The translations under genes and the position numbers were made by a program. The notes below the pieces were generated by a model. That model was not told the DNA's origin and made no database searches. It saw only the letters and a program-made list of their open reading frames with translations. A stretch of DNA of 25,778 nt from Nitrospiraceae bacterium (GTDB lineage: Bacteria; Nitrospirota; Nitrospiria; Nitrospirales; Nitrospiraceae): assembly GCA_031418735.1 (NCBI GenBank), contig JANOJM010000279.1, forward strand, positions 1-25,778, in the 5' to 3' direction. Below are positions 1-7,191 of this stretch, piece after piece. The first letter of the stretch is position 1, and every line of letters starts with the position of its first letter.

Positions 1-415
1 TTGTGCGGGCTCCTCTCTCCACTGCAAGGCCGCCCTCGTTTGATTGCACGAGCGGGATGGGGTTCAGGGTGATGTAATACATATTGGGAGAGTACTCAAT
101 CATGGCATCGGAAGCATAGTCTGTTGTTGTACTGACAGGAAAGAAGAGGAAATTGGCCCAAAAATATCCGTTCGTTTTGGTTTGAAGCATGAGAGATTGA
201 TCCTCATAGCCATTCTTTTTAGCCATGAGCATCGTAGTCTTCGAACGTTTCACGGCCATAGTTAATGGGGTCGTGCCAAGCTCCATACCGTTAACATAAA
301 TCCTGGCACCGTTTGGTGACGAGTTGAAAGTTACGGGTTGACTAGAGCCATCGATAATGGTCGCGCAACCCGAAGCAACCATAGCGAGCACTAGGATGGA
401 CAATCGAAACAGCAT
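1..415 (-). CDS. PEGA-domain lipoprotein (3' end runs off the left edge; absent from the ORF track)
   Basis: Manual translation from ATG at 415 is open for 138 codons to the edge: MLFRLSILVLAMVASGC (lipobox) ATIIDGSSQPVTFNSSPNGARIYVNGMELGTTPLTMAVKRSKTTMLMAKKNGYEDQ (PEGA-like S-x-P-x-GA-x-I-Y-V-NG...G-x-TP...KxGY). Confidence 0.8.
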   Translation of the reverse strand, partial: MLFRLSILVLAMVASGCATIIDGSSQPVTFNSSPNGARIYVNGMELGTTPLTMAVKRSKTTMLMAKKNGYEDQSLMLQTKTNGYFWANFLFFPVSTTTDYASDAMIEYSPNMYYITLNPIPLVQSNEGGLAVERGART

Positions 416-538
416 TTCTACCTTTCGCCTATGACCTAAGAGAAGGATGAAAGCCAGCCACCCCGTGAACTTGATCATGATGAGCCCCCTTATGAAATAG
501 GAACCAACAGTAGATGAATAAGGACGTAATGCACTCCC

Positions 539-577
539 TACACTCAGAAAGTGTATCTGACAGTTCTATTTTGTCAA
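539..577 (-). promoter_or_regulatory. Leftward sigma70-like promoter overlapping a perfect palindrome (candidate XRE operator)
   Basis: TACACT-cagaa-AGTGTA at 539-555. On the minus strand, TTGACA (577-572)-N16-TACACT (555-550). Lies between the divergent PEGA and XRE genes. Confidence 0.45.
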
Positions 578-649
578 TTTATTACGCCTACTGGTGGGTT
601 AATCTCACGTGGCTGTCGCCGCATACTCCCGCTCAAGAGGGGTGGCAGC

Positions 650-976
650 ATGGATATCAAACGAGCGGTGGGGAAGCGTATCAAGATCGTGCGGCAACGG
701 AGCGGACTGACTCAGGATCAACTCGCCGAACAGGTGGGGTTGAGTCCGAAATACATTAGCGGCATTGAGCGAGGGGTTGAAAATCCCACAATGGATATTC
801 TTATCCGCCTGGCGAAGATGCTTGGAGTTGAGCCGTATGATCTCTTCCTGTTTGGAGAATCAGAGGAGAGTGAGAAGGCGTTGCGAAAAGGGATCGAGAA
901 GATGGTACGGGAAGCGGATCGGGAGAAGCTTCAGTTGTATTTCGATGTCATGAGGAACATTCTCCAACTCACCTGA
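650..976 (+). CDS. XRE-family HTH transcriptional regulator (108 aa)
   Basis: MDIKRAVGKRIKIVRQRSGLTQDQLAEQVGLSPKYISGIERGVENPT is a classic HTH_3 pattern. ATG 650 with GAGGGG upstream is preferred over GTG 551. Confidence 0.9.
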   Translation: MDIKRAVGKRIKIVRQRSGLTQDQLAEQVGLSPKYISGIERGVENPTMDILIRLAKMLGVEPYDLFLFGESEESEKALRKGIEKMVREADREKLQLYFDVMRNILQLT

Positions 977-1079
977 GGCCACAGTTGAGGACAATTCCCT
1001 ACCTTCAGATACCCCTGCTGATTCCGCCTCAGTTACGCTTCCAAACTCCACCAGCTAGGCTGAATAGCTGATGAAACAG

Positions 1080-1243
1080 TCGGCGGGCCTTCGCTGTGAT
1101 AATTTGTGATAGAGGGGGTAAAAATCACAGACCCTATCGACCCCATAGAATCTATAGACAAATCACAAGCGCCTGAATTTATGAAAGAACGGGGAAACCG
1201 TTGACCGATCAAACCCTTGTAAAAATGGCCGTGATCCGGCTCT
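1080..1243 (+). repeat. att-arm direct repeat, copy 1 (ends in partial core GATCCGGCTCT)
   Basis: Colinear with 3267-3430 (offset 2187), 152/164 identical by manual alignment. It diverges right after CTCT (CTCTAGG versus CTCTTAA). Confidence 0.9.
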
Positions 1244-1245
1244 AG

Positions 1246-1520
1246 GAAATTGTGGTGGTCATGGGCGCAACCAACAAAATTCTCGCGCAGCAAGTTGATG
1301 AACTGACTGAGGGACTAACCGACGTGCGAGAATGTGTTCAGGAGGTCAAGGAGGCTGAGGATATGGCCGAACTGAGCGATACGACTGCTGAGATTGTCGA
1401 AAACATTGATAAATCATCGGGCTTGAAGACAATGACGAAGATGACGGGCAAGGGTCCGCTGAAGGATTTGAGGAAGCTCAGAGGAAGAGTACCACGAAGA
1501 AAGTGCGGCGGCCAATCTAG
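1246..1520 (+). pseudogene. 5'-truncated, frameshifted remnant of a helical protein with an acidic tail
   Basis: The frame is open directly from the arm junction (EIVVVMGATNKILAQQVDELTEGL...ENIDK). Adding one A at 1411-1413 continues it as IIGLEDNDEDDGQGSAEGFEEAQRKSTTKKVRRPI* (TAG 1518-1520). Confidence 0.55.
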
Positions 1521-1583
1521 GGTCGTCGCTCCTGGAGTCTTTATCACGAAAGTGTGCCAAGCCTAGGGGAACACTGCAAGATT

Positions 1584-2510
1584 CTACAAGACTTTGGTTT
1601 TGACTACAGTTTCTACTCCTTTGCCTCGCACTGTATCAGTAAACATTCCTACTCCAGTCTCTGTCATGAAATTAGGCAAGAGCACCACAATCAAGTTTCG
1701 CCCGTATCGCGTTTGGTAGTCCTCTAATTGGCCATGTGCACGGTGTATGTCACCCTGGCTATTGGGCATCTTGAACTCGATTCCAACTCCCCCCTGCTGA
1801 GGATGACCAATATGAAAATCGATCTTCAACGTGTTGCCATGAGCGATAGCGTACTGTTCATGTACCTTGTCCTTCCCAAATACCTCGGCCATCTCAGTGT
1901 GAAAGTCTTCATAATAGTCTTTCTCATACTCTCTATTTTTGAGGATTGGATACCACAGCACAAATGGAAGAACGGCTTCCTTGGTAAATGCCGCACCTCC
2001 ATTTACAACGCGGGGTAGCCAGCCCTCCTGAAATCCCACTTCTCGATAGATTTGCCTGAAGAGTACATCTTTAGAACCCTCGCACTTCAAGCCTAAACTT
2101 TCAGCTATAAGGAATAGTCCATCTCCGGAAGACAACTGGCGGAGGTAGTTTATTGTTTGACCAGGAAAGGTCTCTGCGGGCATTGAAAGATATTTCGTGT
2201 GTTGCCGAATCTTAGCTATTTTCTCTTCCGCTGTACCGCTGGGATCTTGGCCTAGATCTCGTAACCATTCTGAGAGTTCTTTCGAGGTTGAAACGTTAAG
2301 GTAGCAATCGAGGAGCTTCTGCCTAAATTCTGAATTTGCAGTAGGCTTTAATACGGAAAGGGGAGGCATGGACCGCACATCCTCCTGAGACGAGTCTTCA
2401 TGACCGTCTTGGACTGCTGTCAAACTTTGTTGAGTTGAAGTGGCTGCACCACAGGATTGGCAGAATCGAGCCGACTCAGGAAGTTTGTGGCCACAGGAGA
2501 TACAGAACAT
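1584..2510 (-). CDS. Zn-ribbon + two SAP-like motifs + C-terminal PD-(D/E)xK nuclease-like domain
   Basis: N-terminal CISC..CQSC. SAP-like segments ELSEWLRDLGQDPSGTAEEKIAKI and LFLIAESLGLKCEGSKDVLFRQI. Nuclease-like core YEKDY...KIDFHIG...GIEFK...GQLEDY. RBS AGGAG upstream. Confidence 0.75.
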   Translation of the reverse strand: MFCISCGHKLPESARFCQSCGAATSTQQSLTAVQDGHEDSSQEDVRSMPPLSVLKPTANSEFRQKLLDCYLNVSTSKELSEWLRDLGQDPSGTAEEKIAKIRQHTKYLSMPAETFPGQTINYLRQLSSGDGLFLIAESLGLKCEGSKDVLFRQIYREVGFQEGWLPRVVNGGAAFTKEAVLPFVLWYPILKNREYEKDYYEDFHTEMAEVFGKDKVHEQYAIAHGNTLKIDFHIGHPQQGGVGIEFKMPNSQGDIHRAHGQLEDYQTRYGRNLIVVLLPNFMTETGVGMFTDTVRGKGVETVVKTKVL

Positions 2511-2752
2511 ACTTTCTCCTCCCTTTTCTCCACGGACTTTTCAGGGCAAGAATTTGTACGGAAAGATTAGCAGCTCTTGATTGATTGTCCAGTTTTTCAG
2601 AGAATTGATAGGGCAAGCCTTTGGCCGAACCAAACAAGAGTGTAAGGCAGGAATGACAATCAGGTTGATGGTCGGGCAAGAAGATCAGCCGAAGATATTG
2701 GCATGTGCATTCCCTGCTATCTCTCAAACGCGCGGGCATTAGTCGTTTTTTG

Positions 2753-2793
2753 TGTTACCATTCATCGATATGAATATCCTTATGGGATTCATA
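2753..2793 (+). promoter_or_regulatory. Extended -10 element followed by a palindrome (candidate operator)
   Basis: TG-n-TACCAT at 2753-2761 and TATGAAT-N11-ATTCATA at 2769-2793, in the divergent intergenic region. Confidence 0.3.
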
Positions 2794-2825
2794 GCAGTTC
2801 CCTTATTCTTGACAAGGAGATTTTC

Positions 2826-3257
2826 ATGAACAAGAAACTGGCGCGACGACTCATTGGCCGGGATCTGCGCCTCTCTCCCGTACCATTAAGTTTAACCTGG
2901 TCATCCTACCCCATTATCATCCCTGAGTATCTAAATGTCTGGCGCATGGAGGAGGTAAAGGCAAACGCCTATAGTTTGACGAACCCGCAGGGCTACCGCT
3001 TGGACCTACCCGCTGAGTTGGCCCTCAGCTATACTGGGCCTGACGTCCTCGAACTGCGTGCCCAGATAATAGTGCAGGGTCGCAAGCTCACTCTCTATCC
3101 TCTAAGGGTGTACCGATGGGATATGCCTTTCCCCTTCACTGCCGTCACACAGCGCACGGCAACACAGCGAAATACCGGACCGGCCTCCGCTTCGGCATCG
3201 CCCGTCCTCGTAAGCTTAGCGCTTGGATTGATGCTCGGTCTGGTCGTGAGCTCCTGA
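2826..3257 (+). CDS. Hypothetical protein with a C-terminal transmembrane anchor (143 aa)
   Basis: AAGGAG RBS before ATG 2826 (MNKKLARRLIGRDLRLSP...). Beta-rich body, Thr/Ala/Ser linker, terminal hydrophobic helix VLVSLALGLMLGLVVSS. Confidence 0.75.
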   Translation: MNKKLARRLIGRDLRLSPVPLSLTWSSYPIIIPEYLNVWRMEEVKANAYSLTNPQGYRLDLPAELALSYTGPDVLELRAQIIVQGRKLTLYPLRVYRWDMPFPFTAVTQRTATQRNTGPASASASPVLVSLALGLMLGLVVSS

Positions 3258-3266
3258 TATTGAATA

Positions 3267-3430
3267 TCGGCGGGCCTTCGCTGTGATAATTTGTGATAGA
3301 GGGGCTAGAAATCACAGACTCTATAGACTCCATAGAATCTATAGACAGGTCACAAGCGCCTGAATTCATGAAAGAACGGGGAAACCGTTGACCGATCAAA
3401 CCCTTGTAAGAATACCCTTGATCCGGCTCT
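3267..3430 (+). repeat. att-arm direct repeat, copy 2 (P arm of attR)
   Basis: TGTGATA x2 (3282, 3292), inverted ATCACA/TCACA, 9-mer array 3312-3347, IHF-like ATCAA-N4-TTG at 3395-3406. Abuts the tRNA fragment. Confidence 0.9.
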
Positions 3431-3471
3431 TAATCAGCGGGCCGTAGGTTCGACCCCTACACGGCCCACCA
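3427..3471 (+). tRNA. 3' half of tRNA-Lys(CTT), non-functional attR fragment
   Basis: Anticodon loop CT-CTT-AA, 3' anticodon stem TCAGC, T-arm GTAGG-TTCGACC-CCTAC, acceptor strand ACGGCCC-A-CCA. There is no D-arm or 5' acceptor strand upstream. Confidence 0.9.
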
Positions 3472-3580
3472 AACCTCGCTTCGTTCGTGCCGTTCGCCTA
3501 GCTATCAGGGCAAACGGATACACCCCTCCTGTAGCTGTCGATTGTTATCATTCGTGAATAGTCCAGGCTAGAAGATCCAT

Positions 3581-4939
3581 ATGCAGGCCACACCACGCTT
3601 GATCCCGCTGCCGCTCTACACGCAAGTGCTCATCGCTGTGGCTTGTGGCGCGGTGCTGGGAGTGGTCTTTGGTCAAGAGCCCTATCTGGGCGGCTTAAAG
3701 AACGAGCATTTGGGCTGGCTCGGGCTGCTGCTCGTCACGCTGTTGAAGACCCTTGCCATCCCGCTCATCTTCTTTGCGATCCTCGATGCGCTCATCCGCA
3801 CCAGTCTCCCGCTACGTCAAGGGACCAAGCTGCTCCTCATCTGTCTCATCAATGTCTCCGTGGCCATGACGATCGGCCTCGTGATCATGAATACCTGGCA
3901 GCCTGGCCTAACCTGGTACGGCCACGTCGACGAATTGCTAAACGTCGTGCCAAGCCCTAAGCCATCGGCGGGCGCCGCTGCAACAGTGCAAACCGGGACG
4001 CAGAGTCCGATCGAATACCTCGCGTCCTATATTCCCCGCACCATCATGGCGCCGTTTTCGAGCGGAAACATCATCGGAGTCGTCCTCCTCGCCCTGTGCA
4101 TCGGTGCCATGCTTCGCCGCCTGCATGGCAATGCAAATCAGGGTCGTGGAGTCGTTCATACCCTCGTGCGAATCATTGAGCGCGTTTATTCGTGGCTCGT
4201 ACAAATGCTCGGATGGATCATCCTTGCAGTGCCGCTCGCCGTCTTCGGCGTCGTCGCCCAGGTCGTCGGCAAGGCGGGCATCGGCGTCTTCGTCGTCCTC
4301 TGGATATTCCTCGTCACCATGCTCGTGGGACTCGCCATCCATGCGCTGGGCTACTACCCGCTCGTCGCCTGGCTGATAGGGAAGAAGTCGCCGAAGGTCT
4401 ACATCGGACAGGGAGCTGACGCGATCATGACCGGCGTATCGTGCAACAGCAGTCTCGCCGCCGTGCCAGTCACCCTCCGGTGCCTCGATCGCATGCAGGT
4501 CTCGCCTCAATCGGCGCGTCTCGCAGCCTGTGTCGGCACGAACCTCAACAACGACGGTATCACCCTCTATGAAGCGATGGCCGCGCTCTTTCTTGCGCAA
4601 GCGCTGGGCTACGACCTCTCGATGGGCAGTCAGGTGTTGATCGTCGTTGCGTCGATGATTGCGGGGGCCGGCGTGGCCGGCATTCCGGAAGCGGGGATGA
4701 TCGTGTTGCCGCTCGTCCTCTCAGCCGCCGGCTTGCCCCCTCATGTCATCGGTGCAGCCATTCCACTCATCATGACGGTGGATTGGATCATCGCCCGAGC
4801 CCGCTCCGGCGTGAACGTCCTGAGCGACATGCTCGTCGCCATCCTCCTCGATGTCGGGCGTGTCACACCCGAGACGGAACAGGCCGCGCTTCAATCCCAA
4901 TCCGACGTCACGACTCCCACAGAGCCCCAGCCCTCCTGA
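3581..4939 (+). CDS. Dicarboxylate/amino acid:cation symporter (DAACS/SDF family)
   Basis: Multi-TM protein with CNSSLAAVP, GTNLNNDGITLYE, GVAGIPEAG and DWIIARARSGVNV motifs. Confidence 0.93.
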   Translation: MQATPRLIPLPLYTQVLIAVACGAVLGVVFGQEPYLGGLKNEHLGWLGLLLVTLLKTLAIPLIFFAILDALIRTSLPLRQGTKLLLICLINVSVAMTIGLVIMNTWQPGLTWYGHVDELLNVVPSPKPSAGAAATVQTGTQSPIEYLASYIPRTIMAPFSSGNIIGVVLLALCIGAMLRRLHGNANQGRGVVHTLVRIIERVYSWLVQMLGWIILAVPLAVFGVVAQVVGKAGIGVFVVLWIFLVTMLVGLAIHALGYYPLVAWLIGKKSPKVYIGQGADAIMTGVSCNSSLAAVPVTLRCLDRMQVSPQSARLAACVGTNLNNDGITLYEAMAALFLAQALGYDLSMGSQVLIVVASMIAGAGVAGIPEAGMIVLPLVLSAAGLPPHVIGAAIPLIMTVDWIIARARSGVNVLSDMLVAILLDVGRVTPETEQAALQSQSDVTTPTEPQPS

Positions 4940-5857: not shown

Positions 5858-6006
5858 CCTATACTCCCATCCCCTCTCCCCCTGTCAGGCGAGGCACTCG
5901 ACCAAGGCCATCGGTACACCCATGTGTGGGATCGATCCCTTGTTCACTTACGATAGCACAGTGGATGGATGGAAGGGACGGATGGACATACCTTGCGCAT
6001 AACCCG

Positions 6007-7191
6007 TCACTCATCGAGGCTCGGACGAAAAATGAAGGGTCCATAGACCAGGGCAAACAACAGATAGGCCCCACTCCAACTACCTGCCGCCACCGCCAAT
6101 ACAAGATTGGCCGGGAGATCCGTCATCGGCCCGAATACTCTCAGCACGGCGCCCAGGTTGACCAGCATATAGATGAGGACCGTCAAAGGGCCCGCATGCC
6201 GGGGACGCCCCGTATGGCCCAGGCTGGCACGGGTCATCACCGCCAGCGTCATCGCGCCCACTGCGCCGCTGGTAAAGGCATGCACCGCATCCTCTTTCGG
6301 CAAACCAATCCCGAGGATCGAGCCTCCCAGTATGAGCAACGACAATGCGAACCAGCCATAGCCAACATGCAGGATCAGCACCAAGGGCTCACGCCATGTG
6401 GCCCAGCCGTACCAGCGTGCCAGACGACCAAGATTGGCCAACCCGGCTAGCGCGAATAGCCATCCCGTTACCATGGAGGAGGGCTGAACAATCCAGGATA
6501 GAACGGCGAATCCTACGAGTGCGATCGAGAGACCATCGTAACGGGAAAAGGATGTAGGCCGATCAACCCTGCCGGAATTCGCCAGAAGCTCGCCGGTAAA
6601 GTTGGGGATGAGGCGCCCACCGATCAGTGTCAGCAACAGCATCACCATCGCGAGCGCCATGCGTTCGGGACGATCTGTCTCCGCCCCGCTCAGTGAAAGT
6701 ACATGGAACAGGATGTTGGCGCCGGCCAGCAGACTCACCAACACCCCCATCGGCGCACGATCCCAGTTTTTCGACGCGATAATTTCTCGCCAGACCAGCC
6801 CCGCCACCGCGACAAGAAACCCTACATCGACGATGGCTGACACGAGGGGCGTGAACCATGGAATAGCGATCAGCACACGTCCGGCCAGCCAGAGGGTAAA
6901 GAGCGACATCAACTCAGGCCCTCGAATCGGCGGACGATCGGTCCAGTTGGGAATGGCCGTGAGCAGAAAACCCGTGATCACGGCGGGGAGAAAACCGAAG
7001 ACCATCTCATGCACATGCCAATCCCGAGCCGGATAGAGAAAATTCGAGTGGCCGACTTCGGCAAACACCAGAATCCAGACAGGGATCGCCACGCCGGCAA
7101 ACAATGCGGCGCCAAGGAAAAATGGCCTGAACCCGTACGAAAAGAATGCAGGCCCCTGGTAACTTGGACCTTCGCTCGCCTGTTCAGCCAT
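6007..7191 (-). CDS. nnrS: NnrS family membrane protein (NO/nitrosative stress response)
   Basis: FFSYGFRPFFLG, WHVHEMVFGF, GFLLTAIPNWT, GGRLIPNFT and MTRASLGHTGR motifs. Start ATG 7191 (or 7206). Confidence 0.93.
   Translation of the reverse strand: MAEQASEGPSYQGPAFFSYGFRPFFLGAALFAGVAIPVWILVFAEVGHSNFLYPARDWHVHEMVFGFLPAVITGFLLTAIPNWTDRPPIRGPELMSLFTLWLAGRVLIAIPWFTPLVSAIVDVGFLVAVAGLVWREIIASKNWDRAPMGVLVSLLAGANILFHVLSLSGAETDRPERMALAMVMLLLTLIGGRLIPNFTGELLANSGRVDRPTSFSRYDGLSIALVGFAVLSWIVQPSSMVTGWLFALAGLANLGRLARWYGWATWREPLVLILHVGYGWFALSLLILGGSILGIGLPKEDAVHAFTSGAVGAMTLAVMTRASLGHTGRPRHAGPLTVLIYMLVNLGAVLRVFGPMTDLPANLVLAVAAGSWSGAYLLFALVYGPFIFRPSLDE

Follow-up and report, generated by a model that had tools for sequence, protein, structure and literature searches.

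How does the attachment arm of an integrative element come to stand twice beside one fragment of a tRNA gene, with only one of the two copies joined to that fragment? The locus that raises this question lies on a 25 778-nt stretch of Nitrospiraceae DNA (GCA_031418735.1, JANOJM010000279.1), which we refer to as the window; it is a complete contig (C279) of a metagenome-assembled genome (MAG; 84% complete, 427 contigs), and no assembled DNA lies upstream of its position 1. We identify a composite integrative island that occupies the tRNA-Lys(CTT) gene of a Nitrospira and has its right-hand two thirds at window 1–3471; very probably this composite consists of two sister elements joined within the core of their attachment (att) sites. 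The upstream one, here called E, is ∼4.7 kb long and comprises an integrase gene (int), an xis-like HTH_17 gene, two small cargo genes, a PEGA lipoprotein gene, an XRE regulator gene, and arm 1. The other, R, corresponds to the right end of a sister element (2.2 kb), with a decaying acidic-protein gene, a nuclease-like gene, a gene for a protein of 143 amino acids (aa), and arm 2; it still adjoins the tRNA 3′ part, whose displacement dates from the first occupation of the site. Coordinates are collected in Table 1.

The two arms form a direct repeat of 164 nt (1080–1243 and 3267–3430), the sole direct-repeat family that the repeat finder reports for the window. A base-by-base count gives 152 of 164 positions identical (93%), the 12 differences all being substitutions and the longest uninterrupted matches 42 and 38 nt, in agreement with the first-pass annotation, a reading of the DNA made from its letters. 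Both copies end in ...GATCCGGCTCT. Copy 2 continues as TAATCAGCGGGCC...CCA, positions 32–76 of the intact tRNA-Lys(CTT) gene of relatives, and copy 1 as AGGAAATTG..., unrelated DNA that has only CTCT in common with the tRNA part; comparison with the relatives' gene thus upholds the earlier description of these two continuations. The double-arm structure is no assembly artefact, because arm-specific unitigs from two sequencing runs tile it with zero mismatches and because the identical type of arm 1-CTCT-AGG junction recurs, at 89–95% identity, in L057, a separate groundwater assembly from another site. ARAGORN finds no intact tRNA in the window, and an Rfam scan of 900–3700 at E-values up to 1 returned no match; the arm is therefore not a known RNA. 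The island has a GC content of 47–49%, compared to 56% in the remainder of the window. Unitig depth is equal for E and for the cargo between the arms (14.4 versus 13.5 in run X1, and 7.4 versus 6.1 in run X2). Two other sediment samples yield variants of window 1–3700: one (run X5) is without 2729–3224 and resembles L057, and one (run X9) is without 993–1488, that is arm 1 plus the acidic-protein gene, and resembles L065 or L086 (two related loci described below). The locus is therefore polymorphic between natural populations.

Window 3427–3471 is the core plus the B′ side of attR. The corresponding empty site is preserved in the close relative G044, whose contig C80 reads tRNA-Arg(CCG), tRNA-Lys(CTT), and then directly the flank seen in the window; the DNA behind its intact tRNA-Lys is 97.7% identical to window 3472–4400 over 929 nt. 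All the DNA to the left of 3427 is therefore insertion. The tRNA copies at attL and attR differ by one T-loop base, and it is the attR copy that has the empty-site allele, which is the expected outcome of integrative recombination. A regenerated intact tRNA stands at the far end of orthologous elements in G009, L084, L079, and G057.

What lies to the left of the window could be followed for some distance: contigs of two sequencing runs overlap window 1–1109 and 1–1117 and reach 3.3 kb further. The Logan contig L066, found by exact-protein look-up and 100% identical to window 1–1117, reads in order int (cut by the contig end), an HTH_17 gene, a 42-aa open reading frame (ORF), a 314-aa ORF, the PEGA gene (complete here, at 254 aa), the XRE gene, and the start of arm 1. 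The first-pass annotation had called for a search upstream for an integrase, and L066 supplies one, together with a gene of an excisionase family (HTH_17). This int has 84% DNA identity to that of G009, which encodes a 385-aa tyrosine integrase (PF00589, E-value 7e-41). G009 itself represents the single-element state, a 6-kb unit that begins behind tRNA-Lys with int and an excisionase-family HTH_17 gene, continues with five cargo genes and an XRE gene, and closes with the arm and the displaced tRNA part. Over its last 750 nt it is ∼95% identical to window 488–1243, its XRE protein is 97% identical to that of window 650–976, which occupies the same position, and its arm, orthologous to arm 1, abuts the tRNA part directly. 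A further exact-protein look-up with the xis of E, aimed at reaching the tRNA, returned only the same 4.4-kb contigs, ending inside int.

In a family of small tyrosine-integrase elements, this sequence is the P arm, the one distal to the integrase. From 85 genomes of the genus, a collection of 185 579 species, and JGI metagenomes we compiled 52 non-redundant arms, all from Nitrospira or Nitrospiraceae DNA; in the species collection, the genome records that match the conserved block of the arm are all Nitrospira or Nitrospiraceae MAGs. The full 45-nt tRNA part adjoins 22 of the 52 arms, a nearly full or decayed tRNA part adjoins 5 more, and the arm ends integrase-bearing elements at tRNA-Lys in the relatives G009, L084, and L065, so that the first-pass annotation was right to tie it to tRNA-Lys(CTT). 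At least 10 of the 22 full cases continue into the P′ motif that normally precedes int at attL (AAATCAACCACTTAC...); with the P′ side of a further element behind them, these are tandem junctions. Arm conservation spans ∼165 nt and includes a TGTGATA-N3-TGTGATA pair, inverted ATCACA, and ATAGA-type repeats; the best conserved, nearly invariant block, ∼30 nt from the core, contains ATCAA-N4-TTG, which is similar to an integration host factor (IHF) site. The TGTGATA pair is also present in the P′ arm beside int and is confined, within the window, to the two arms. Taken together, these motifs suggest a lambda-type attP anatomy with putative protein-binding sites; the match of the integrase to Arm-DNA-bind_2 (E-value 0.0099) is below the cut-off. 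A sigma-70 promoter in the conserved TTGACC...TAAAAT block was considered and rejected, its spacing of 13–15 nt being, as judged by eye, too short. Arms 1 and 2 share 92.5% identity, and neither is closer to its partner than to arms of other samples (arm 2 is 98–99% identical to those of L065 and L086). They therefore derive, as had been proposed from the window alone, from two sister elements and not from a local duplication.

Of its core, arm 1 keeps only the last 4 nt, CTCT (1240–1243), and the nature of the DNA beyond them becomes clear from L058, where the arrangement is unbroken: an HTH_17 gene, a 75-nt spacer, the acidic-protein gene, and then the nuclease gene in convergent orientation. 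Homology between the window and L058 begins at ...TTCTATAGAAAGG..., aligned with the window's CTCT and the following AGGAAATTG. By this comparison the junction falls 17 nt upstream of a conserved ATG (1261), between the HTH_17 and acidic-protein genes; it is therefore intergenic, contrary to the earlier suggestion of a secondary site inside a gene of the resident island. At the break, the partner site in L058 has only TCT in common with the core. L057 has the same joint, accompanied by a 73-nt deletion within arm 1 and by other genes to the right of 2555, and since it is an independent assembly the joint must be both old and real. The placement of the junction in the anticodon-loop core, also an earlier proposal, is borne out more widely: breaks at tRNA nt 3–4, after CTC or CTCT, occur at four unrelated loci (window/L057, L102, L088 arm 1, and L110), and in each of the last three the downstream DNA is unrelated. 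Among the ∼25 truncated arm cases, other breaks fall at nt 7 (one locus type), at nt 9–12 (two), and at nt 16–17 (at least eight unrelated loci). That breaks recur after CTCT is better explained by a site-specific event within the overlap than by random deletion, and it points to an integrase acting at secondary sites as the probable maker of the nt-4 joints. One of these loci, L088, has the same geometry as the window, with an arm, CTCT, a single 212-aa gene, an arm, and a tRNA part, the arms being 917 nt apart. It occupies 5874–6994 of Ga0209824_10000127, where polA and a HicAB pair lie just 1.2 kb upstream; its tRNA part is degenerate, and the 5.9 kb upstream of the locus contain no tRNA-Lys. 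It has the appearance of an old relic, its tRNA end either lost or relocated.

To the right of the junction, the module at 1566–3430 (nuclease gene, 143-aa gene, and arm 2) recurs at 98.7–99% identity behind three different left neighbors. In the window it follows the acidic-protein gene; in L065 it comes immediately after the XRE gene, in an E-type backbone of 88% identity, which makes a complete single-arm element of 6.2 kb between tRNA parts; and in L086 it lies behind another lipoprotein gene, with a slightly different chromosomal flank. It is therefore the right-end module of the same element family, not a private insertion. No int is present between 1244 and 3471. CTAGG, found at 1055, 1242, and 1563, was examined as a target duplication or microhomology that might account for the 1056–1565 difference to L065, and was rejected, as the L065 joint reads ...CAGC/GGGG... 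without CTAGG.

For the origin of the composite we tentatively propose tandem insertion followed by deletion, a history to which we give slightly less than an even chance. R would have been resident in tRNA-Lys when E entered the regenerated tRNA, producing a tandem whose central site would be attP-like, with the P arm of E, the core, and the P′ side of R. An integrase may then have recombined this central site with a weak secondary site (TCT...) between the HTH_17 and acidic-protein genes of R, which would have deleted the tRNA copy and the left part of R and fused arm 1 to R at core nt 4. Having lost the right half of its core, arm 1 should be unable to serve in excision, and the only complete site pair would be attL at the tRNA together with arm 2 and its tRNA part. 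The predicted mobile unit is thus ∼6.9 kb long and takes E and the captured cargo together. L065 looks like a tidy end product of this path, a single-arm element with the captured module. Homologous loop-out between the arms, through the 42-nt identical run, is possible in principle and would restore a G009-type element.

Several points weigh against this account. The DNA to the left of int is unassembled: the contigs end inside int, and no tRNA-Lys, no int of the G009 type, and no additional arm copies were found in the window's own MAG. An intact tRNA upstream of E, and the absence there of the left half of R, are therefore assumptions. No intact R with an int was found, and a 215-aa ORF neighboring the homologous genes in L058, tried as the integrase of R, has no family match. 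L065, which has one arm and the same cargo, might represent the ancestral and not the derived state. The putative cleavage position of E's integrase is read solely from the break points, and the larger class of arms breaks after nt 16–17 and not after nt 4, a class that the model leaves unexplained. Contigs of four runs mapped onto 1–3700 show neither joints at the arms nor any circle or excised form, although contigs lose rare forms and cannot show them.

Arms elsewhere occur in several other contexts. In the nt 16–17 class, an arm is followed by exactly the first 16–17 nt of the tRNA part (CTCTTAATCAGCGGGCC) and then by foreign DNA. The truncation is found only behind arms; across the 85 genus genomes, live tRNA-Lys is never truncated there, and no gene with the 5′ half, 17 nt, and then foreign DNA was found. 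L074 has a 1-kb unit with such a 17-mer on both sides, and in L076 a decayed integrase lies ∼100 nt downstream of the 17-mer. At 10 or more loci, a Gp49/RelE-like toxin gene and an XRE antitoxin gene immediately precede the arm on its left. Between tRNA-Lys (or a tRNA part) and the displaced part, G057, L079, and L100 contain nothing but this pair and the arm, in integrase-less units of 1.26–1.34 kb that are probably addiction-stabilized remnants. Solo arms lack their first 25 nt and are followed by CTCTTAATCAGC and ∼60 nt of common non-tRNA sequence; their contexts are ordinary chromosomal ones, between response-regulator and agmatinase-like genes or near tRNA-Glu, with no integrase nearby. 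Finally, a complete 7.8-kb contig of G035 (L024, contig C279 of that genome) holds an array that runs from a tRNA part through 1.6 kb to an arm with tRNA part and P′ motif, then through 3.4 kb with an IS3-type transposase fragment to a degenerate tRNA part, and through a further 2 kb with a PAS/response-regulator gene to an arm-like sequence with tRNA part; no integrase was detected anywhere in these 7.8 kb.

The joint of arm 1, CTCT, and R would look the same if a circular E had inserted through attP, not into the tRNA, but into a weak secondary site (TCT...) in the intergenic DNA of R. Such nesting predicts the int-side half of R upstream of E and the nuclease-side half downstream. It has precedents, as both secondary-site and tandem integration are documented for other integrative elements, such as SGI1 (PMC2297512), and some tyrosine integrases, among them IntDOT (PMC2817482), need identity only beside the first cleavage. 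We nevertheless hold it to be doubtful, since the primary site, the regenerated tRNA at the attL of R, would have been free and is normally preferred, since the MAG (only 84% complete) contains no second integrase of the family, and since the site is not the intragenic one first imagined for such an event. Tandem insertion followed by deletion must also be set against an illegitimate deletion or rearrangement, independent of integrase, that took place in a tandem or degenerate array and ended in the core by chance. Arrays at this locus are indeed rich in decay, with truncated integrases in G004, G054, G003, L084, and L076; arm 1 of L057 has suffered its 73-nt loss, and breaks are found also at nt 7, 9–12, 14, 24, 29, and 36. 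Chance is nonetheless improbable as the explanation when four unrelated loci break within one nucleotide, after CTC or CTCT, among the ∼25 truncated cases, and when the partner site in L058 has TCT at the break too. As for local duplication of the arm, by slippage or unequal crossing-over, or a chimeric assembly, short-read assemblies often fail at repeats of this size, by a break or a false join, and the window starts exactly at a contig end; the 12 differences between the arms, their equal or greater closeness to arms of other samples, the mismatch-free unitigs, and the recurrence of the joint in L057 make this scarcely credible.

The first-pass annotation had also raised cassette-like accretion, in which integrase-less units of cargo plus arm circularize and are captured serially at the core of a resident attR, as in an integron. 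Part of that idea survives, in that G035, L088, and L084 do contain arrays in which arms or tRNA parts are multiple and the cargo varies. The existence of L088 as a second double-arm locus of the same geometry, the integrase-less toxin–antitoxin units, the G035 array without int, and the presence of the module 1566–3430 behind differing neighbors all speak for it. The strict form finds little support, however, and we judge it quite unlikely. The left boundary of the shared module is at ∼1566 and not at the CTCT joint, and no core-like sequence is present there; L057 and the window have the joint in common but not the right-hand end of the cargo; and the cargo is no discrete unit with constant ends, as it differs among L057, L065, and L086. 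Of the arms that stand before foreign DNA, most are without a second arm within ∼9 kb (in the long contigs L087, L108, L063, and L118, neither a second arm nor a tRNA part follows within 7–10 kb), the toxin–antitoxin units can also be explained as deletion derivatives of L084-type elements, and no circles are seen in the contigs. A related and similarly improbable proposal is that the arm plus a short core constitutes a portable capture site, with integrase-less cargo-plus-arm units, and elements having just the first 17 nt of the tRNA identity, entering only the displaced tRNA part behind a resident element, never a live tRNA; the 17-nt class and the toxin–antitoxin units keep such a cassette-like reading alive at low probability. 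If it were true, the attR end would be an integron-like platform for gene accretion built from a lambda-type att site, and the break classes at nt 4, 11–12, and 17 would mark the strand-exchange points and the edge of the right core-type site.

Table 1. Features of the composite island and its flank (window coordinates), and loci of related arms
Feature	Position or locus	Strand	Basis and remarks
PEGA-domain lipoprotein gene, 5′ part; cargo of E	2–478	−	Pfam PEGA, E-value 2.6e-9; runs off window start
XRE-family helix-turn-helix (HTH) gene, 108 aa; last gene of E ahead of the arm	650–976	+	Pfam HTH_3, E-value 6.9e-17
Arm 1, P arm of E; now internal, orphaned	1080–1243	+	TGTGATA pair 1095–1111; ATCACA 1124, 1162; IHF-like ATCAA-N4-TTG 1208–1219
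Fusion junction E/R	1243..1244		Splits the 45-nt tRNA identity block after nt 4 (anticodon loop, C-T-C-T / T-A-A)
Small acidic-protein gene of R	1261–1520	+	Frameshifted near 1410 relative to 81-aa L058 homologue; alignment and three-frame translation
308-aa cargo protein gene: N-terminal zinc ribbon, helical middle, C-terminal PD-(D/E)xK-like nuclease fold	1584–2510	−	Pfam Zn_Ribbon_1
143-aa protein gene, hydrophobic C-terminus; part of conserved right-end module	2826–3257	+	ORF list
Arm 2, P arm of R; working attR arm of composite	3267–3426	+	TGTGATA pair 3282–3298; IHF-like site 3395–3406
Displaced chromosomal 3′ part of tRNA-Lys(CTT), anticodon loop to CCA	3427–3471	+	Positions 32–76 of the intact gene in G044, G009, and others
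Chromosomal flank	3472–4939	+	Includes dicarboxylate/amino-acid:cation symporter-like gene 3581–4939
Arms followed by 16–17 nt of the tRNA part	L067, L063, L074, L076, L081, L085, L087/L092, L108, L118, L093, G035:C12		
Toxin–antitoxin pair plus arm	L027 5127–6386 (G057); L079, L100, L084, L096, L107, L110, L117, L122, L124		
Solo arms	L025 10783–10938 (G031:C269); L026 (G035:C63); L029 4226–4430 (G039:C58)		

Relative to its L058 homologue, with which it shares the start codon and ribosome-binding site, the acidic-protein gene is frameshifted and therefore a probable pseudogene: its N-terminal part lies in the frame of ATG 1261 and its acidic tail in the +2 frame, with the stop TAG at 1518–1520, and the copy in L057 has an extra 2-nt deletion. 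The 308-aa protein has 79 homologues in which D231, E245, and K247 are near-invariant; its AlphaFold2 model (pLDDT 88) finds NucS/EndoMS, the Card1 nuclease, and PspGI as best PDB folds, weakly, at E-values of 1e-3 to 3e-2, and in some homologues on other contigs a SAP domain replaces the zinc ribbon. This protein is absent from PADLOC. The 143-aa protein, 97–99% identical in L065 and L086, has no Pfam, NCBIfam, or PADLOC match, and searches of the cargo proteins against PADLOC, NCBIfam, and PDB sequences were uninformative.

No description of Nitrospira mobile elements was found in the papers searched, and the locus is best placed by comparison with systems known elsewhere. In Streptococcus, accretion of the ICESt1/ICESt3 type stacks elements that share a site by site-specific recombination, and gives rise to cis-mobilizable elements (CIMEs) (Pavlovic 2004, Bellanger 2011, via PMC5704250); the older element decays and loses its integrase, and the integrase of the incoming element moves the composite, capturing genes. 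The same source covers a tRNA-Lys tandem with a chimeric internal att site, and accretion in many integrative and mobilizable elements (IMEs). The Nitrospira composite likewise has related elements on one site, the older one integrase-less, and could be moved by the incoming integrase. It differs in that its elements are tiny (1.3–9 kb) and without conjugation or mobilization genes, and in that the internal site is cut to 4 nt of core rather than being a complete chimeric att. Nor is the remnant at 1244–3471 a CIME, defined as lacking integration and transfer genes and having intact attL and attR, for it has attR but retains of its left site only CTCT, preceded by an arm of foreign origin. The ssrA islands of Dehalococcoides form many small tandem islands behind one small-RNA gene, with direct repeats of its 3′ end and an upstream conserved motif, and some, without an integration module, are proposed to be cis-mobilized (PMC3146451). 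Those islands use a serine recombinase and a 20-bp repeat in the T-loop of tmRNA, in contrast to the tyrosine integrase, 164-nt arm, anticodon loop, and 45-nt tRNA part of the Nitrospira locus.

In the Islander collection, the anticodon-loop class is the commonest (2083 of 3919 islands), and 125 tandems are recorded (PMC4383910). The composite resembles that class: integration would regenerate the tRNA, the far end of the island is marked by a displaced 3′ fragment, and identity starts in the anticodon loop; the fragment is in gene orientation, a PF00589-type int lies inside the island (through L066), and an empty site is available in G044. Islander accepts a tandem only if every member has its own integrase and tRNA fragment (PMC4383910), and the composite is no such array of complete islands, as the right-hand member (1244–3471) has no int and the internal tRNA fragment is 4 nt long. 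IntDOT tolerates overlap mismatches beyond the first cleavage (PMC2817482). The joint at arm 1 resembles such cases in keeping only the left few overlap bases, as if identity were needed only beside the first strand exchange. With integron cassettes the locus shares stacked units that each end in a recombination site, beside an integrase-linked platform. It is not an integron: scores against the integron-integrase models are 72.5 and 43.7 bits, compared to cut-offs of 265 and 435, and there is no attC-like folded site and no constant unit end, the site being instead a 164-nt duplex-type arm with repeated motifs for putative protein binding. Secondary attachment sites of lambda-type integrases offer a further comparison for a joint that keeps the left part of the overlap.

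We conclude that the locus exhibits a known accretion process in a new element family, its peculiarity being the truncated internal site. Current ideas stand, since tandem accretion and gene capture are already established for integrative and conjugative elements (ICEs), IMEs, and ssrA islands. The conserved arm provides a practical marker for finding such islands and their variable cargo in metagenomes, and the clustered break points yield a concrete prediction of the position at which the integrase cuts. For Nitrospira, key nitrifiers, the locus defines a family of very small integrative elements of tRNA-Lys(CTT) whose att anatomy is readable, and it would offer a snapshot of cargo pick-up, from accretion of a sister element through loss of the internal site to a clean single-arm element such as that in L065.

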